Assembly: GCA_963820595.1 (NCBI GenBank)
Contig: CAWGAO010000005.1
Span: 3,853-67,852 of the forward strand
DNA: 64,000 bases
Origin: Candidatus Tagabacteria bacterium
Lineage (GTDB): Bacteria; Patescibacteriota; Minisyncoccia; GCA-002779875
Direction of reading: 5' to 3'
Numbering within the stretch: the stretch's first letter is position 1; each line of letters begins with the position of its first letter. Shown piece by piece: positions 5,744-59,261 of the stretch. The notes below the pieces were generated by a model. The model worked only from the letters and a program-made list of their open reading frames with translations. It did not search any database and had not been told where the DNA came from. The translations under genes and the position numbers were made by a program.

Positions 5744-5840
5744 TAATTTTACGAGGTAGAACCATAGCGAGACGCTTCGCGCAAAAGGCCTGCCTGCCGG
5801 CAGGCAGGGATGCGCTATTCGCGCCCGCGCCTCGCGAGAC
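5744..5840. repeat. partial copy (H) of the GC-rich palindromic element core
   Basis: About 88% identical by eye to the reverse complement of 15197-15302. Contains ACCCCGCCCTAATTTTAC and the 20-bp perfect palindrome CCTGCCTGCCGGCAGGCAGG (5789-5808). Confidence 0.85.
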
Positions 5841-7198: not shown

Positions 7199-7394
7199 AA
7201 AAATAAGGAGCCCCGACGTAAGGCGGGACGACTATATTTTTCTTACCCCCTCACTCAAATTTTCATTTAGTTCCTAAGTAATTATTAAATTTAAAAATTA
7301 ATACTCGATTAAAAATGATTTTTTTGAGATAATTTTGATTATGAGTGAGGGGGTGCTCAAAATTATTATTCACTAACGTTCATATAATTTTGGC
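7199..7394 (+). repeat. modular palindromic intergenic element, copy A (M + long C5/G5 stem + M')
   Basis: M is GAAAAATAAGGAGC-ccgacgtaaggcggga-CGACTATATTTTTC (7199-7242). The stem is CCCCCTCACTCA (7246-7257) paired with TGAGTGAGGGGG (7342-7353). M' (7354-7394) ends at the ATG at 7395. Confidence 0.9.
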
Positions 7395-15095: not shown

Positions 15096-15302
15096 TTTTA
15101 TTATGAGCGGAGCGAATTATAAAAATGAGCACCCCGCTCTAATTTTACCGTTAAAATCAAAATTGTCATTTATTGAACTAAAGAACCTATTTTAATCTCG
15201 CGAGGTGCGGGCGCGAATAGCGCATCCCTGCCTGCCGGCAGGCAGGCTTTTAGCGCGAAACGCCTCGCCGTTGTTCTATCTTGTAAAATTAGGGCGTGGG
15301 TT
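15096..15302 (-). repeat. modular palindromic intergenic element, copy G (between infC and rpmI)
   Basis: M' abuts the rpmI ATG (sense: GGGGTGCTCATTTTTATAATTCGCTCCGCTCATAATAAAAATG). Outer stem is 15130-15148 paired with 15283-15302 (CCCCGCTCTAATTTTAC / GTAAAATTAGGGCGTGGG). The GC-rich core carries CCTGCCTGCCGGCAGGCAGG (15227-15246). Confidence 0.9.
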
Positions 15303-16269: not shown

Positions 16270-16614
16270 TGGAGATGGCGAGATTTGAACTCGCGTCAAG
16301 AAGTTAAATGCATTATCGTCTACAAGCTTGTTTCGGTTGAATAAGATTGCGGTTAGAACCGAAAGAAAAACGCAAAATTTTTCCTTCTTTTTAGTCGCTC
16401 TATATCGAAGGTTTATAGAGTCTAGCCCGATAATGACGTCTCGGTCTTTCTATCGTGCATCAAAAGAGAGACGGCTTTTGCTTAAATTTTAAGCAAAAGC
16501 GTAAGCAGGTTGATTCACTGCATTTACATTTGTTGAACGGATTTTAAAGAGGTAACCGATCATCCTCTGCCTGCGAATAACGCATTTTGACTCCCTTCGA
16601 AGCCTTTCATCCCC
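16270..16614 (-). ncRNA. ssrA: tmRNA (SsrA)
   Basis: 5' end GGGGAUGAAAGGCUUCGAAGGG, 3' end GACGCGAGUUCAAAUCUCGCCAUCUCCA. The acceptor stem has a G3:U pair. Tag ORF GCA GUG AAU CAA CCU GCU UAC GCU UUU GCU UAA encodes AVNQPAYAFA*. A helix (GCUUUUGCUUAAA/UUUAAGCAAAAGC) spans the stop. It lies next to smpB. Confidence 0.85.
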
Positions 16615-22503: not shown

Positions 22504-22533
22504 GCCCGTTCGCCAGCTGGCGAACGGGCTTTT
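22504..22533 (+). terminator. rho-independent terminator
   Basis: Perfect palindrome GCCCGTTCGCCAGCTGGCGAACGGGC followed by TTTT. Confidence 0.8.
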
Positions 22534-28483: not shown

Positions 28484-31400
28484 ATGCAAGGAAAGGAGGA
28501 AAAATTAAGTTTTCCCGAGCGGGAAGAGAAGATTTTGGAGTTCTGGAAAAAGAACAAGATTTTTGAAAAATCCGTTGAGCAGAGGAAGGGCGAAAAAGAA
28601 ATTCGTTTTTTACGAAGGCCCGCCGACGGCCAACGGCCAGCCAGGCATTCACAGCATGGAAGCGCGTGTTTTTAAAGATATTGTTTTGCGCTATAAAGCA
28701 ATGCGGGGATTTTATTGCAAGCGAAAAGCCGGCTGGGACACCCACGGTTTGCCCGTAGAAATCCAGGTTGAAAAAGAACTTGGTTTAAAAAATAAAAAAG
28801 AAATTGAGGAATATGGCATTGAAAAATTTATAGAGAAATGCAAGGAAAGCGTTTGGCGTTACAGGAATGAGTGGGAAAATACTGACATACCGGATGGCTT
28901 ACTGGCTGGATATGAAAAACGCTTACGCGACAATGACGAACGATTACATCGAAACTCTTTGGTGGATTTTCAAAGAGATCGACAAGCGAAAATTGCTTTA
29001 CGAGGATTATAAAATCGTTCCTTGGTGTCCGCGTTGCGGAACCGCTCTTTCTTCGCACGAGGTCAGCCAGGGTTATCGCAAAATAAAAGAAGATTCCGTT
29101 TATATAAAATTTCCCGTGAAAGGAAGACCGAATACTTATTTTTTGGTTTGGACAACTACGCCCTGGACATTGCCGTCCAATGTTGCTTTGGCGATAAATC
29201 CCAAAATAACGTATACCATAATCGAAAAAGACGGACGAGCGCTTGATTTTGGCGAAAAATCGCCTTTCCGTTATCGATGGTGAATACAGGATTGGCGAAG
29301 AAAAACCGGGAACTGATTTAATCGGCAGAGAGTATGACCCCTTATACTCGCGGAGCGCTTAACCCAGACCAAGTCGAGGGGCTTATAAAATTTATGCCGC
29401 GGATTTTGTTTCCGCTGACGACGGCACGGGTATTGTCCATATTGCTCCGGCTTTCGGCGAAGACGATATGAAACTGGGCAAAGCGAATAATCTCCCGGTT
29501 TTAAGTCTTGTCGACGAAGAAGGAAAAATGCTGACGCCGAATTACAAATGGAACGGAATGTTTATCAAAGACGCCGACCCGTTGATTGTCGAAGATTTGC
29601 GCCAAAGAAATCTTCTTTATAAAACCGAAAGCTACGAGCATGATTATCCTTTTTGCTGGCGCTGCGACAGTCCTTTGATGTATTATGCCAAAACTTCCTG
29701 GTGGCTGAAGACAACAGGCGTAAAACAGCAGATGATTAAGGAAAATAAAAAAATTCACTGGCACCCGGATTATTTGAAAGACGGCCGTTTCGGCGAATGG
29801 CTGAACGAGTTGCGGGATTGGGCGATTTCGCGCGAGCGTTATTGGGGAACGCCGCTTCCGATATGGCGATGTCCTGATTGCAAGCGTTACGAAGTTATCG
29901 GCTCAAGAGAAGAGTTGAAGAAAAAAACCGTGAAATCGGGAAACAATTATTTTTTGATGAGGCATGGATTTTCGGAAGCCAATCAGAAAAATATCAATAA
30001 TTCAAATATCGAAACAAATCATTACAAACTGACTCCAAAAGGCAAAAAAGAAGTTTTGAAAGCGGCCCAAAAATTGAAAGAAGCAAAAAATAGATTTGAT
30101 TTTCTCCTCCGATTTTTTGAGAACAAAGGAAACGGCGCTGTTGGCGGCTGAAACTTTGGGCATTCCAGAAAAGGATGTTGTTTTTGACGAACGATTGCGC
30201 GAAATAAATACGGGAATTTTCGACGGAAAATCCCGCGCCGAATATCACAAATATTTTTCTTCGCTTCTGGAAAAATTCACCAAAACCCCGCCTCAAGGCG
30301 AAAATTTAACCGAATTGAAAAATCGCATCACGCAGTTTTTGTATGAAATAGAAAATAAGTACAAAGGTAAAAACATTTTGATTGTCAGCCATGAATATCC
30401 GATTTGGATGTTAACTGCGGGAGCAAAAGGAATGACTAACGAGGAAGCGGTGGCGACTAAAGGGGAAAAAAGACGATTTTATTAAAACAGCCGAAGTTAT
30501 GAAACTGGATTTTACGCCTTTGCCTCATGACAAGAATTTTGTTTTGGATTTTCACCGGCCATATATAGATAAAATCATATTGAAATGCGACAAATGCGGC
30601 GGCGACATGATTCGCATTAAAGATGTTTGTGATGTTTGGTTTGATTCCGGTTCGATGCCGTTCGCCCAAAATCACTTTCCATTTTCTATCCCTAAAAAAA
30701 ATTTACTCTATCCGGCGGACTATATTTGTGAAGCGATTGACCAGACAAGAGGGTGGTTTTATACGCTGCTTGCGGTTGCGATTTTGTTGGGACGAAAAGC
30801 GCCTTATAAAAACGTGCTTTCTTTGGGTTTGGTTTTGGACGCCGAGGGGCAAAAAATGTCAAAATCGCGCGGCAACGTGGTGGTGCCAGGAGAATTGATG
30901 AACAAATACGGCGCCGATGCGGTGCGCTGGTATTTTTATACCATCAATCAGCCGTGGGACGAAAAATTATTTAAAGAGGAGGATGTCCAGGCGGCTTTGC
31001 GAAGATTTATTTTGATTTTTTGGAATTGCTTTTCCTATTGGAAAATGTACGCGGGTAAAAATTTTAAAATCAATCCGCCAGCTGGCGGACCCAAATTGGT
31101 TATCAATAAATGGCTGCTGGCGAAATTTAATCAAATTGCCTTAGAAGTTCCCAAATTACTCGATAATTACGATATCGTTTCAGCGGCGCGGTTGATAGAA
31201 GATTTTGTAATTGAAGATATCTCTCATTGGTATATTCGCCGCATGCGCGGAAATAACTGAAAAATTCCGGTTCCCGAGAAGCCAAAGAAATAAATGCGGT
31301 TTTGGGCCAAGTGATTATGGACACAGCAAAATTACTTGCGCCGTTTATGCCTTTTGTTTCAGAAACGGTTTACCGGGAAACGGGCGGGAAAAAGAAAAGC

Positions 31401-34560: not shown

Positions 34561-34772
34561 AAAAATAATGAGCCCTGCCTGCCGGCAGGCAGGGAAGCGA
34601 CTATATTTTTCTTAACCCCCATCTTTTACACCCGACCATTTTAAGGTTAATATTAAAGATATTCTATGATGCAAACTTTTATGCAAACTTCAATGTTGTA
34701 TATATTCTGGTCGGTGTTAAAAGAGGGGGTGATAATTTTATAAAATTCACTTCGTTCGCTAGTAAAATTATC
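34561..34772 (+). repeat. modular palindromic intergenic element, copy C
   Basis: M is AAAAATAATGAGC-CCTGCCTGCCGGCAGGCAGG-GAAGCGACTATATTTTTC. Stem is CCCCCATCTTTTACACCCGACCA (34616-34638) paired with TGGTCGGTGTTAAAAGAGGGGG (34708-34729). M' runs to ATG 34773. Confidence 0.9.
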
Positions 34773-40632: not shown

Positions 40633-40808
40633 GAAAAATAAGAAGCGTTAGCGATTATATTTTTCCCAACCCCCTCTTTTACACCCAAATATTCTTTTTA
40701 TAGCTATATGTAAAAACCAAAAATAATTACTGAAATTGACATTAGATTAAAATTTTGGGGTTAAAAGAGGGGGTTCTCATAAATTATATTCGTTTCGCTC
40801 ATTAATTT
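40633..40808 (+). repeat. modular palindromic intergenic element, copy D
   Basis: M is GAAAAATAAGAAGCgttaGCGATTATATTTTTC. Stem is CCCCCTCTTTTACACCC (40670-40686) paired with GGGGTTAAAAGAGGGGG (40757-40773). M' (TCTCATAAATTATATTCGTTTCGCTCATTAATTT) runs to ATG 40809. Confidence 0.9.
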
Positions 40809-52427: not shown

Positions 52428-52461
52428 CGACACGATTTGTCCATATGGACAAATCGTGTCG
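52428..52461. repeat. 34-bp perfect palindrome
   Basis: CGACACGATTTGTCCAT|ATGGACAAATCGTGTCG in an ORF-free 370-bp gap. Confidence 0.95.
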
Positions 52462-54154: not shown

Positions 54155-55168
54155 ATGGTGAAAGAACAGTCAATGGATATCTTCCAATCTCTCAGAAAAG
54201 ACGCATTTGAGGCCTTAGAAGAGGCCTCGGATTTTGAGTCTGTCCATAAGGTTGAGATAGATTATCTGGGGAAAAAGGGCAGACTTACAAACATTCTGAA
54301 AAGTCTGAAAGATATGCCGGCAGCGGAGCGAAAAGTTATGGGCAGCACCGCCAATGCCTTGAAAAAGGAGATAGAAGAAAAAATTAAAGAGAAAAAGAGC
54401 GAGCTCGGAGAAAAGCCCGCGATTCGATATAAAACCGGCTGGATAGATATTTCCGCTCCGGGGAAAAAGATTTCGCGAGGACATCTTCATCCGCTAAGCC
54501 GAATTACAAAAGAAGTGACGGATATTTTCGAATTAATGGGCTTTGAAGTCGTCGAGGGCCCGGAATTGGAAACCGAACATTATAATTTCGACGCGCTTAA
54601 TGTGCCGAAAAATCATCCAGCCCGAGATTTAATGGATACTTTTTGGCTGAAGCCTCTAGAGAGTCATTTACTTTTGCAGACCCATACTTCCCCGATGGAG
54701 ATTCGTTATATGGAAAAAAATAATCCGCCTTTGAGAATCGTAGCGCCGGGCAGATGCTTTCGCTATGAAGCCACGGACGCTACTCACGATATTCAATTTT
54801 ATCAATTGGAAGGTTTGGTGCTTGGAGAAAAAACAAACTTAGCGAACCTTAAGGGAACTTTGGAAATTTTTTTGAAACGCCTTTTCAAGAACAAAGAAGT
54901 TGAAATTAGATTTATACCGGCTTATTATCCTTTCGTTGAACCGGGGGTAGAAGTTGATTTCAGAATAAATAAAAATAGTGAATGGTTAGAGCTTGGTGGC
55001 GCCGGAATGACCCACCCCCAAGTTTTAAAAAATGTAAAACTGAATCCATTATTATGGCAAGGTTTTGCCTTCGGGCTGAGCTTGGATAGGCTTGCGATGC
55101 TCAAATACAAAATTAACGATATTCGCTTGTTTTATTCCGGCGATTTGAGATTTATCAGGCAATTCTAA
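54155..55168 (+). CDS. pheS: phenylalanyl-tRNA synthetase alpha subunit
   Basis: HPLSRITKEV.., HPARDLMDTFW, and class II motifs 2 and 3 (GRCFRYE, GFAFGLSLDRLAM). Confidence 0.95.
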   Translation: MVKEQSMDIFQSLRKDAFEALEEASDFESVHKVEIDYLGKKGRLTNILKSLKDMPAAERKVMGSTANALKKEIEEKIKEKKSELGEKPAIRYKTGWIDISAPGKKISRGHLHPLSRITKEVTDIFELMGFEVVEGPELETEHYNFDALNVPKNHPARDLMDTFWLKPLESHLLLQTHTSPMEIRYMEKNNPPLRIVAPGRCFRYEATDATHDIQFYQLEGLVLGEKTNLANLKGTLEIFLKRLFKNKEVEIRFIPAYYPFVEPGVEVDFRINKNSEWLELGGAGMTHPQVLKNVKLNPLLWQGFAFGLSLDRLAMLKYKINDIRLFYSGDLRFIRQF

Positions 55169-55175
55169 ATTTATC

Positions 55176-57160
55176 ATGCAATTTTCATACAATTGGCTGC
55201 AATCTTTTTTCGAGAAAAAAATTCCCGAGGCGGAAAAGCTGGCGGATGTTTTAACCATGCATTCTTTTGAAGTAAAAGGGTTTAAAAATATCAATTTGCC
55301 GTCGGGAACGCCGGATATTATATTTGATATCGATGTTTTGCCTAATCGCGCCCATGACTGTTTTTCTCATTTGGGCATAGCAAAAGAAATTTCCGCGCTT
55401 TTTAATATGCCGCTAAAAGTTGCTCCGCGGCCAAAATTGGAAATTTTGAAGGAAAGAGCGGAAAAATATTTGGAACTCGAAGTGCAGAATCCGGATTTAT
55501 GCAAAAGATACATTGCCGGCATAATGGTGGATATTAAAGTCGGCCCTTCTCCTTCCTGGATGCAGGAAAGATTGATGGCCGTAGGCCAAAAGCCGATTAA
55601 TAACATTGTCGATTCGGCAAATTACGTGATGTTAGAAACAGGTCAGCCCTTGCACGCTTTCGACATGAACAAATTAAACCCCCCCACCAAAAATTTTGGT
55701 GGGGGGTAAATCCCGTCCGGATTATCGTAAGGCGCGCAAAAAGCGGCGAGAGTATCGTTACTCTGGATAATAAAGAATGCCAGCTCGATAGCGGCATGCT
55801 GGTTATCGCCGACGATAAAGTGCCGCTTGCGATTGCCGGCATCAAGGGCGGGAAAAAGGCGGAAATAGACAAAAAGACCAAAAATATAATCATAGAATCG
55901 GCAAATTTCGAACCGACGAATATCAGGCTCACCTCGCAAAAATTGGGTTTGCGCACCGGCGCTTCGGTCGGTTTTGAAAACGAGATTTCTCCGAGTTTGG
56001 CTCCGAAGGCAATGGATAGGGTCATGGCTTTAATTCAAGAAACGGCCGGCGGCAAAATTATTTCTGATAAAATCGATTTTTATCCTAAAAAAGTTGGAGC
56101 AAGCCGCGTTTCTTTTAACCTGACCGACGTTTCGAAATTGCTCGGAGTCGTCATCAGCGAAAAAGAAATTATTTCAACGCTGGAACGGCTTGGCTTTGAA
56201 ATCAAAAAGACAAAAGGAGTTTTGGGCGTTACCGCTCCGATTGAGCGCTTGGATATAACAAATAAAGAAGATATCATAGAGGAAATCGTCAGAATTCACG
56301 GCTATGAAAAAATTCCGGCGAAAGTTCCGGAAGGAAATTTGGCGCCGGCGACGCGAAACGATAATTATTTTTACGAAAATGTCATCAGAGGTTTATTCGT
56401 TGAGGCGGGTTTTAGCGAAGTTTACAATTATTCTTTTATGTCCGAAGGTGAGGTGGAAATTCAGAATCCAATCGCCGAAGACAAAAAATATTTAAGAGCC
56501 AGTCTTCTGCCCGGCTTAATAGACAATGTCGGCCAGAATTTCAAAAACTTCAGCGAAGTCAAAATATTTGAAATAGGAAAAGTTTTCAAAAAATCAAAAG
56601 CTGGCATTGAAGAAAAAAATATGCTTGCCGGCATCATCGCGTATAAAAACGCAAAAACCAAAGCGGAGGAATTTTATGAGCTAAAAGGGATTCTTGAAGT
56701 TTTATTTTCAGGGATGGGAATCGACGATTATTGGTTTAGCGGACATCCGGAGAAGACGGCGGAGATAAAAATCGGGGAGAAGTCGGTGGGAACAATTGAA
56801 GAGAATGCGTTTGAAATAGATTTGGATGAGTTAATTCCTCTTGCCGACGAAGAGCTTGAGTTTCGGCCGGTTTCAAAGTATCCGGCCGTAATGAGGGATA
56901 TCGCTTTATTCGTTCCGCCGGAAACAAGAGTGATAGAGGTGCTGGATATTATCGAGAATGCGGCCGGGCCGCTTTTGATAGATACCGACTTATTCGATAT
57001 TTTCGAAGGCGAGGAGGTGGGGGACAACAGAAAAAGTTTTGCTTTTCATTTGATATTTCAAAGCAGTGAAAAAACTTTGAGCGACAAAGAAGTTAATGCT
57101 TTAATGGATAAGATTATCAAAGCGCTTGATGGAAACCTTGATTGGGAAGTCCGGAAGTAA
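55176..57160 (+). pseudogene. pheT: phenylalanyl-tRNA synthetase beta subunit (short form), one frame break inside a palindrome
   Basis: MQFSYNWLQSFF.. runs to 55709. The sequence NPVRIIVRRAKSGESIVTLDNKECQLDSGMLVIADD continues in another frame from about 55707 to 57160. Confidence 0.9.
55679..55706 (+). repeat. C7-ACC-A5/T4-GGT-G6 palindrome inside the pheT coding sequence
   Basis: The sequence is CCCCCCCACCAAAAATTTTGGTGGGGGG. The frame break maps to its homopolymer arms. Confidence 0.9.

Positions 57161-59261
<2,101 letters not shown>

Follow-up and report, generated by a model that had tools for sequence, protein, structure and literature searches.

In the 64-kb stretch of Candidatus Tagabacteria DNA analysed here (64,000 nt, referred to as the window), the gene pheT, which encodes the beta subunit of phenylalanyl-tRNA synthetase (PheRS), carries a 28-nt palindrome at its only frame break. 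This palindrome is, with high confidence, an inserted member of a dispersed family of very short palindromic repeats that normally lie in frame inside genes. The fuller account, to which we lean with moderate confidence, adds that the pheT copy departs from the reading frame by a single missing G, which would be an error or non-representative variant in an otherwise functional gene.

The element occupies positions 55679-55706 and reads CCCCCCCACCAAAAATTTTGGTGGGGGG, that is C7-ACC-A5-T4-GGT-G6, between ...HAFDMNKL on its 5' side and NPVRIIVRRAKSGESIVTLD on its 3' side. Its two arms, located by a repeat finder at 55680-55692 and 55694-55706, comprise 13 nt each, are 100% complementary and are separated by a 1-nt gap. 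As RNA, the hairpin has 12-13 bp, starts at the C of an AAC codon and dominates a predicted fold of -25.1 kcal/mol (z = -3.2). Across 100 shuffles of the window, the core pattern was expected to match 0 times by chance, and the longest perfect hairpin across 50 block shuffles reached 11 bp. Upstream of the break, the 5' part of pheT in the list of open reading frames (ORFs) runs in frame 0 on the plus strand (55176-55709) and ends in ...AFDMNKLNPPTKNFGGG, followed by the stop codon TAA (55707-55709). Downstream, the gene continues on the same strand in the -1 frame (frame 2, 55709-57160), from NPVRIIVRRAKSGE... to its stop, with no second lesion, as supported by the ORF list, Pfam and the orthologue alignment. 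The original prediction had placed a palindrome within the pheT reading frame at its only break, and this is confirmed.

Apart from this single lesion, the locus appears intact, with 176 and 483 open pheT codons on the two sides of the break, an intact pheS (PheRS alpha subunit; 54155-55168, plus strand) directly upstream, and a gene order S6 - pheS - pheT - gyrB that matches the orthologous loci L047, L049 and L051 of relatives. The 177-aa 5' product is present, in exact form, as a separate protein in a public collection, and a 454-aa product with the Pfam domains B3_4, B5, tRNA_synthFbeta and FDX-ACB has been called from the first ATG of the 3' frame at 55796 (P0006). A reading of pheT as a split protein was rejected, as a start at 55796 would lose 29 conserved residues of the B3_4 domain.

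The palindrome is inserted at TTAAAT with a 4-bp TAAA duplication. A direct repeat of TAAA, missed by the original prediction, brackets the element on the plus strand (left copy 55675-55678; right copy 55707-55710, which supplies the frame-0 stop codon with its first three bases). The empty site is preserved in the orthologue L051 as GAT AAA TTA AAT CCC GTA, and the filled site of the window reads AAATTAAA[28 nt]TAAATCCC, i.e. AAC AAA TTA AA[28 nt]TAAAT CCC GTC, such that taking the palindrome and one TAAA out of the window reconstitutes the empty site exactly. At the protein level, an alignment of 120 homologues, obtained by a search with the frame-repaired PheT that places the organism among the Patescibacteria (CPR) and including one best match named Candidatus Tagabacteria, shows that the closest 20 orthologues (61-70% identity) read FDMDKLNP(V/A)KIVVRR and align without gaps to the window once the 32 nt have been removed. 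The insert of about 10 aa is lineage-specific and absent from all close orthologues. A few more distant homologues carry other inserts in the same loop, which indicates that the site tolerates extra residues.

The same element recurs on many public contigs. An exact-pattern scan (CCCCCACCAAAA-N0-2-TTTTGGTGGGGG) of one-genome-per-species bacterial and archaeal genomes and of Joint Genome Institute (JGI) metagenomes recovered the core at 5 loci in the genome collection, for which we roughly estimate about 0.01 chance matches, and on 41 JGI metagenome contigs, i.e. on 46 contigs. The five genome loci belong to metagenome-assembled genomes (MAGs), namely two loci to one Saccharibacteria MAG and one each to a Moranbacteria MAG, a low-GC MAG and a Hymenobacter MAG, the last at a terminator-like site. 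The hosts are mostly low-GC Patescibacteria, and the majority of the copies match the 26-mer CCCCCCACCAAAATTTTGGTGGGGGG perfectly, on contigs of 30-42% GC and with many differing flanks. When the fetched loci were scanned a second time, for the arms only (C5+ACCA...TGGTG5+), 60 elements at about 33 distinct sites were returned; L024 alone has 5 copies within 10.6 kb, while L015 has 4 and L020 has 3. The arms CCCCCCACCA...TGGTGGGGGG enclose 3-8 nt in elements of 23-28 nt, 13-15 nt in elements of 35 nt and about 42 nt in elements of 62-63 nt, and a single 129-nt element has them around a complete tRNA-Leu(TAG) gene, so that the terminal inverted repeats CCCCCCACCA / TGGTGGGGGG are common to elements of 23-129 nt. 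[quoted passage not shown]

Two arrangements of the arms deserve separate mention. In L024 (10055-10183), the tRNA-Leu(TAG) gene lies between CCCCCCACCAAATT ... AATTGGTGGGGGG, and its leader and trailer could pair over about 14 bp; this arrangement may reflect cargo capture, a processing stem or coincidence. In a Saccharibacteria MAG (L001 2468; L004 3824 and 4388), a variant with C5/G5 arms forms part of a longer conserved stretch, GGATGYGCTCCCCCACCAAAA-N-TTTTGGTGGGGGAGTGTRCC, in intergenic DNA and in at least 3 copies. The possibility that CCCCCCACCA is a tRNA 3' end was rejected, as ARAGORN finds no tRNA at the palindromes of L001-L005.

Within genes, the family keeps the reading frame. Outside the window, the in-gene copies occupy 19 distinct sites in long ORFs, and all 19 are read through in the frame of the host gene. 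The hosts include an ABC ATPase, MnmA, a DUF6938 protein (2 sites), a BpsA_C-like protein, TsaD, an SLT-domain protein, a prepilin peptidase (2 sites), a Dak2-DegV protein, ornithine carbamoyltransferase (OTC), MurB and RecG (3 sites), along with further ORFs. At 10 of 11 host-gene sites with an exact core, the encoded peptide is (A/T/P/L)PHQNFGGG; others read PPTK... or PPP.... In TsaD, one lineage has a 26-nt copy and two others have one of 27 nt, the change in length being compensated by a 1-nt difference in the flank, which argues that the frame is under selection. Taken together, the 19 in-frame copies and the compensating indels indicate that the elements are normally translated and not skipped. 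Among the copies examined for a change of frame, only the one in the window pheT has long ORFs in different frames on its two sides. The suggestion that a GC-rich hairpin can be carried in frame inside essential genes, in the manner of the Rickettsia palindromic elements (RPEs), is therefore borne out by these 19 further sites in Patescibacteria genes.

Palindromes are not the only in-frame repeats in these genes. Heptanucleotide microsatellites (AAATCCC, AAAATCA, ATACAAA, ACAACTT and others, repeated 3-5 times) also occur in frame in Patescibacteria genes, at L015 59-100 and 461-493, in L017, at L019 936-974, in L039 and in L007. They encode peptides such as IPNPKSQIPK, KIKNQKSKIK and TTYNLQLTTYNLQ and occupy the same variable loops as the palindrome, for example in TsaD. 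Other recurrent in-frame inserts, for instance ...NRASIYGSEGEEEDGILFA... within the loop of TsaD and ...GDELRSSSRFANARVF..., which is sometimes longer, close to the N-terminus of MnmA, are found in the TsaD and MnmA homologues P0134, P0168, P0198 and P0231, and P0247, P0249, P0253, P0284 and P0292, and may represent further translated-repeat families.

The flanks of the elements bear on how they spread. Perfect 4/4 TAAA/TAAA flanks occur at 2 of 31 sites, namely in the window pheT and at L024:8251, versus 0 of 155 offset controls; an empty site is confirmed for the pheT copy only. The L024:8251 copy reads TCT AAA [CCC CCC ACC AAA AAT ATG GTG GGG GGT AAA] CCA, in which 26 nt plus TAAA give 30 nt, so that the insertion is frame-neutral by construction. 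Read towards the element, the flanks show a T-T-A-R bias on both sides, with T at -4 in 31 of 62. The TAAA pairs and the shared bias suggest that insertion is transposase-like, takes place at targets resembling TAAA and duplicates 4 bp.

The pheT copy would thus far best be read as a very short mobile repeat without coding capacity, recently inserted and consisting of little more than its two arms, CCCCCCACCA...TGGTGGGGGG. Three properties may explain why such a repeat is tolerated in genes: the canonical 26-nt form is stop-free in all six frames; 26 nt plus the 4-bp duplication amount to exactly 10 codons; and the C- and G-runs, which by direct reading encode Pro and Gly in every frame, would yield a flexible loop at the protein surface, most often xPHQNFGGG. 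As a variant of the canonical 26-nt C6ACCA4T4GGTG6, the pheT copy has an A5T4 core and C7/G6 arms, so that 28 + 4 = 32 nt were added and the frame was shifted by -1. Cores with A5 are also present in other in-frame copies (TsaD, L024:8251 and L036:807). Given an A5T4 core and 4 duplicated bp, an insertion stays in frame when the C- and G-runs sum to 14 (7 + 7, an element of 29 nt and 33 nt inserted); the window has 7 + 6. Of the two repairs proposed in the original prediction, a symmetric palindrome and one added G, each does restore the pheT frame, with the correction that the symmetric C6ACCA4T4GGTG6 had been miscounted as 28 nt and is 26 nt long. One added G (C7...G7) gives a symmetric element, 33 inserted nt and the loop NPPTKNFGGGV in one step from the assembled sequence, and the canonical 26-mer is two steps away. 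The functional pheT of the cell would carry the in-frame C7...G7 version, and the missing G would reflect an error, or a variant that is not representative, in a hairpin whose arms are homopolymeric. A homopolymer miscall is the most economical explanation of the break, as a single G yields symmetric C7/G7 arms; the parts of this account that we infer are the identity of the missing base and the restriction of its loss to the assembly. An error or variant is favoured because pheT is essential, lies at its native locus and has no other lesion, and because all other in-gene copies are in frame.

Several observations weigh against this account. Intact ORFs of the window contain 16 A/T runs of 8-9 nt, which indicates that the assembly is not generally prone to homopolymer errors, and the run-length spectrum of the window resembles that of the other metagenome-derived Patescibacteria contigs fetched; a general homopolymer error of the assembly is not supported. 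Truly decayed genes do occur in the window, namely an IleRS remnant and a His_Phos_1 gene whose break falls at an A6 run. Just one copy of the family is present in the 64-kb window, where no second copy of the pheT arms turns up even when 2 mismatches per arm are allowed. No autonomous partner or parent insertion sequence with matching ends turned up, the fetched loci not having been searched for transposases. Flank duplications at the 29 sites without perfect TAAA pairs are at chance level. Finally, in MnmA, OTC and others, the element fills a loop about as long as in palindrome-free orthologues, and simple cut-and-paste can therefore not explain every copy.

Among the alternatives, the one that holds up best, although we consider it unlikely, is that the 32-nt insertion is real as assembled and that pheT is expressed by recoding. 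Three routes can be envisaged: slippage of peptidyl-tRNA-Gly by -1 on GGG GGG next to the TAA (55701-55709, plus strand), leading to ...NFGGG-V-NPVR with the junction peptide FDMNKLNPPTKNFGGGVNPVR; a hop over the hairpin from AAC CCC (55677-55682) to AAT CCC (55709-55714), which would restore the ancestral ...KLNPVR (FDMNKLNPVR); and slippage of RNA polymerase on the C- and G-runs. Of these, the narrower proposition that the assembly is correct and that full-length PheRS beta is made by a hop or a -1 slip across the frame-breaking palindrome is, in our assessment, quite unlikely. In favour of recoding, a perfect -1 re-pairing site immediately precedes the stop codon, at which a slip, like one extra G, would restore the frame. 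Matched take-off and landing codons, which exist because of the TAAA duplication and the C-run, surround a stable hairpin that starts at the take-off codon, and a G-rich stretch lies 5 nt ahead of the landing codon. The features listed for bypassing in T4 gene 60 include matched sites together with a stem-loop on the 5' side and an internal Shine-Dalgarno sequence (10.1101/2022.08.31.505936). The good homopolymer quality of the assembly elsewhere and the lack of further decay in pheT also fit this reading.

Other features of the site are harder to reconcile with recoding. The codon after the take-off site is CCC or ACC, neither a stop nor a rare codon, the TAA being placed where the gap ends on its 3' side. 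The zero frame, GGT GGG GGG TAA, allows a single P-site slip only; it provides no canonical X XXY YYZ heptamer, and the hairpin lies upstream of or overlaps the slip site, without a downstream stimulatory structure. A +1 slip was rejected, as it leads into a closed frame. The other 19 in-gene copies keep their frame, in part through compensating indels, and no second frame-breaking copy was found among those examined. Chromosomal translational bypassing is not known in bacteria.

A second alternative, which we judge distinctly unlikely, takes the frameshift as both real and inactivating, with pheT as a young pseudogene or part of a defective or minor genotype, and with PheRS function supplied by another copy or by cells that carry the in-frame form. 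G/C homopolymers within hairpins are prone to slipped-strand mispairing, and the decayed IleRS and histidine-phosphatase genes demonstrate that genuine remnants exist in the window. Against this, PheRS beta is essential and normally single-copy, the gene is found at its native locus beside an intact pheS, all of its codons other than those at the single lesion remain open, and a consensus assembly should reflect the majority genotype, which is expected to be viable.

A third alternative concerns the origin of the element and not the frame: the palindromes may be made or renewed in place, by template switching or gene conversion between hairpin-prone loops, with the TAAA repeats as a coincidence. 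We regard this as improbable, yet part of the comparative evidence speaks for it. In MnmA, the palindrome loop APHQNFGGGS is nearly equal in length to the ordinary loop EPEKDGLIGAS, and the same site in another lineage holds a 35-nt variant with the same arms. In OTC, the DUF6938 protein and a ComF-like gene, the element substitutes for 7-12 nt of native sequence, and at the RecG sites a 63-nt element in one lineage corresponds to a same-length, weakly similar segment in another. A universal length of duplication or insertion was sought in MnmA, TsaD, RecG, OTC and other hosts, and none could be defined, the loops being too variable; several inserts look more like replacements than additions, and most flanks are without duplication above chance. 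In-place renewal is, however, hard to square with pheT, in which a clean 32-nt addition with an exact empty site interrupts a loop whose length is fixed among 20 orthologues, and with two independent perfect TAAA duplications, the identical 26-nt sequence in unrelated genes and intergenic DNA, and the T-T-A-R bias shared by both flanks. We read the copies without duplications as old ones, decayed or reshaped in variable loops.

An artefact of assembly or library preparation, with no palindrome in the organism itself, is hardly credible: palindromes can confuse assemblers and the protein collection contains one assembly of this genome, but many independent projects contributed to the 46 contigs with the same sequence, which is found at orthologous positions whose flanks have diverged and always in a frame-compatible form, and it carries a target-site duplication.

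The window contains further palindromes, which are distinct from the pheT element. Three hairpins, each about 105 nt long and with outer stems of the form CCCCC...GGGGG, are present in intergenic DNA at 7246-7353, 34616-34729 and 40670-40773, with stems of about 18 bp such as AACCCCCTCTTTTACACC / GGTGTTAAAAGAGGGGGT and a conserved GCGACTATATTTTTCTTA box before each. The original prediction regarded the pheT hairpin as being of the same style as these intergenic stems; kinship with their C5...G5 arms was rejected, as the stem sequences differ. A GC-rich perfect palindrome, CC(C)TGCCTGCCGGCAGGCAGG(G), at 5789-5808, 15227-15246 and 34573-34594, apparently always lies between genes and forms a separate small family. 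Single perfect palindromes are found between recA and the rpsR-ssb-rpsF block (34 nt, CGACACGATTTGTCCATATGGACAAATCGTGTCG, 52428-52461) and in another intergenic gap (26 nt, GC-rich, GCCCGTTCGCCAGCTGGCGAACGGGC, 22504-22529).

Among the remaining features of the window, the decayed region at 28484-30485 comprises an IleRS-like class I aminoacyl-tRNA synthetase remnant (28484-29950) with frame changes near 28595, 28890 and 29245 and an in-frame TAA near 29365, which lacks KMSKS and the anticodon-binding, C-terminal half and runs into the adjacent histidine-phosphatase His_Phos_1 gene, broken at the A6 run 30085-30090. A tmRNA gene with the tag peptide AVNQPAYAFA is located on the minus strand at 16270-16614. 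Weak intein-domain Pfam matches occur in relatives, in gyrB of L049 (3470-4965) and in a NifU-like gene of L053 (1-231); the gyrB of the window (57237-59261, 674 aa) is shorter than the 783-residue product of L049.

If the family is as it appears, it would represent the shortest in-frame mobile palindrome known to us, with 26 nt, six open frames, frame neutrality together with its duplication, and a Pro...Gly loop whichever way it is inserted. It would explain part of the many loop insertions that are specific to single lineages in the housekeeping proteins of Patescibacteria, for example the variable loops of TsaD, MnmA, RecG and PheT, and would offer a simple marker of recent insertions in highly streamlined genomes. 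For annotation, such sites flag genes liable to false splitting or to pseudogene calls. The pheT copy also provides a concrete and cheap test case for recoding across such hairpins; if recoding were true, it would constitute chromosomal, element-borne recoding in an essential bacterial gene and a natural intermediate between frame-neutral mobile hairpins and bypass elements.

Compared with known systems, the pheT-type element shares with RPEs the presence of in-frame palindromic DNA inside unrelated housekeeping ORFs. RPEs are palindromic repeats that lie in frame in unrelated housekeeping genes and are translated into function-compatible extra peptide segments; they fall into ten families by sequence, are about 100-150 bp long and occur in Rickettsia only (PMC10969869). 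In-frame residence is likewise seen at all 19 of the other sites, the window pheT copy itself being off by one base. In contrast to RPEs, the element has 26 nt (range 23-63), consists almost only of inverted arms, is unrelated in sequence and resides in Patescibacteria; by its size (26-28 nt) and hosts, set against those given for RPEs (PMC10969869), it falls outside RPE-1 to RPE-10.

Short GC-rich hairpin inserts in AT-rich genomes and essential genes are also known from the GC clusters of yeast mitochondria, the byps of Magnusiomyces and the gap of T4 gene 60, and the pheT copy shares the codon match and the hairpin geometry of a bypass element. Those bypass elements are, however, skipped by the ribosome, so that their frame is irrelevant, whereas every other copy of the palindrome keeps the frame and is evidently translated; moreover, the pheT copy is without the stop or hungry codon at the take-off site that is listed as a feature of gene 60 bypassing (10.1101/2022.08.31.505936). 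With the repetitive extragenic palindromes of the REP/REPIN type, mobilised by RAYT, the family has in common imperfect palindromes of 20-40 nt in many dispersed copies, plausibly moved as DNA hairpins, although REPs are extragenic and have a conserved 5' tetranucleotide, whereas the palindromes described here lie mostly inside genes; no RAYT gene was found with them, no search aimed at one having been made.

A structural parallel may be drawn with MITEs such as Correia elements and Nezha, which are likewise short, non-coding and multicopy and bear terminal inverted repeats; a TAAA target-site duplication is seen in the two apparently youngest palindrome copies. The palindrome differs from them in being far smaller, mostly intragenic and in frame, and in having many copies without a recognisable duplication. 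Structurally, it is a minimal MITE, with little beyond its terminal inverted repeats, and we class the family as an extremely short new form of in-frame palindromic (MITE/RPE-like) elements.

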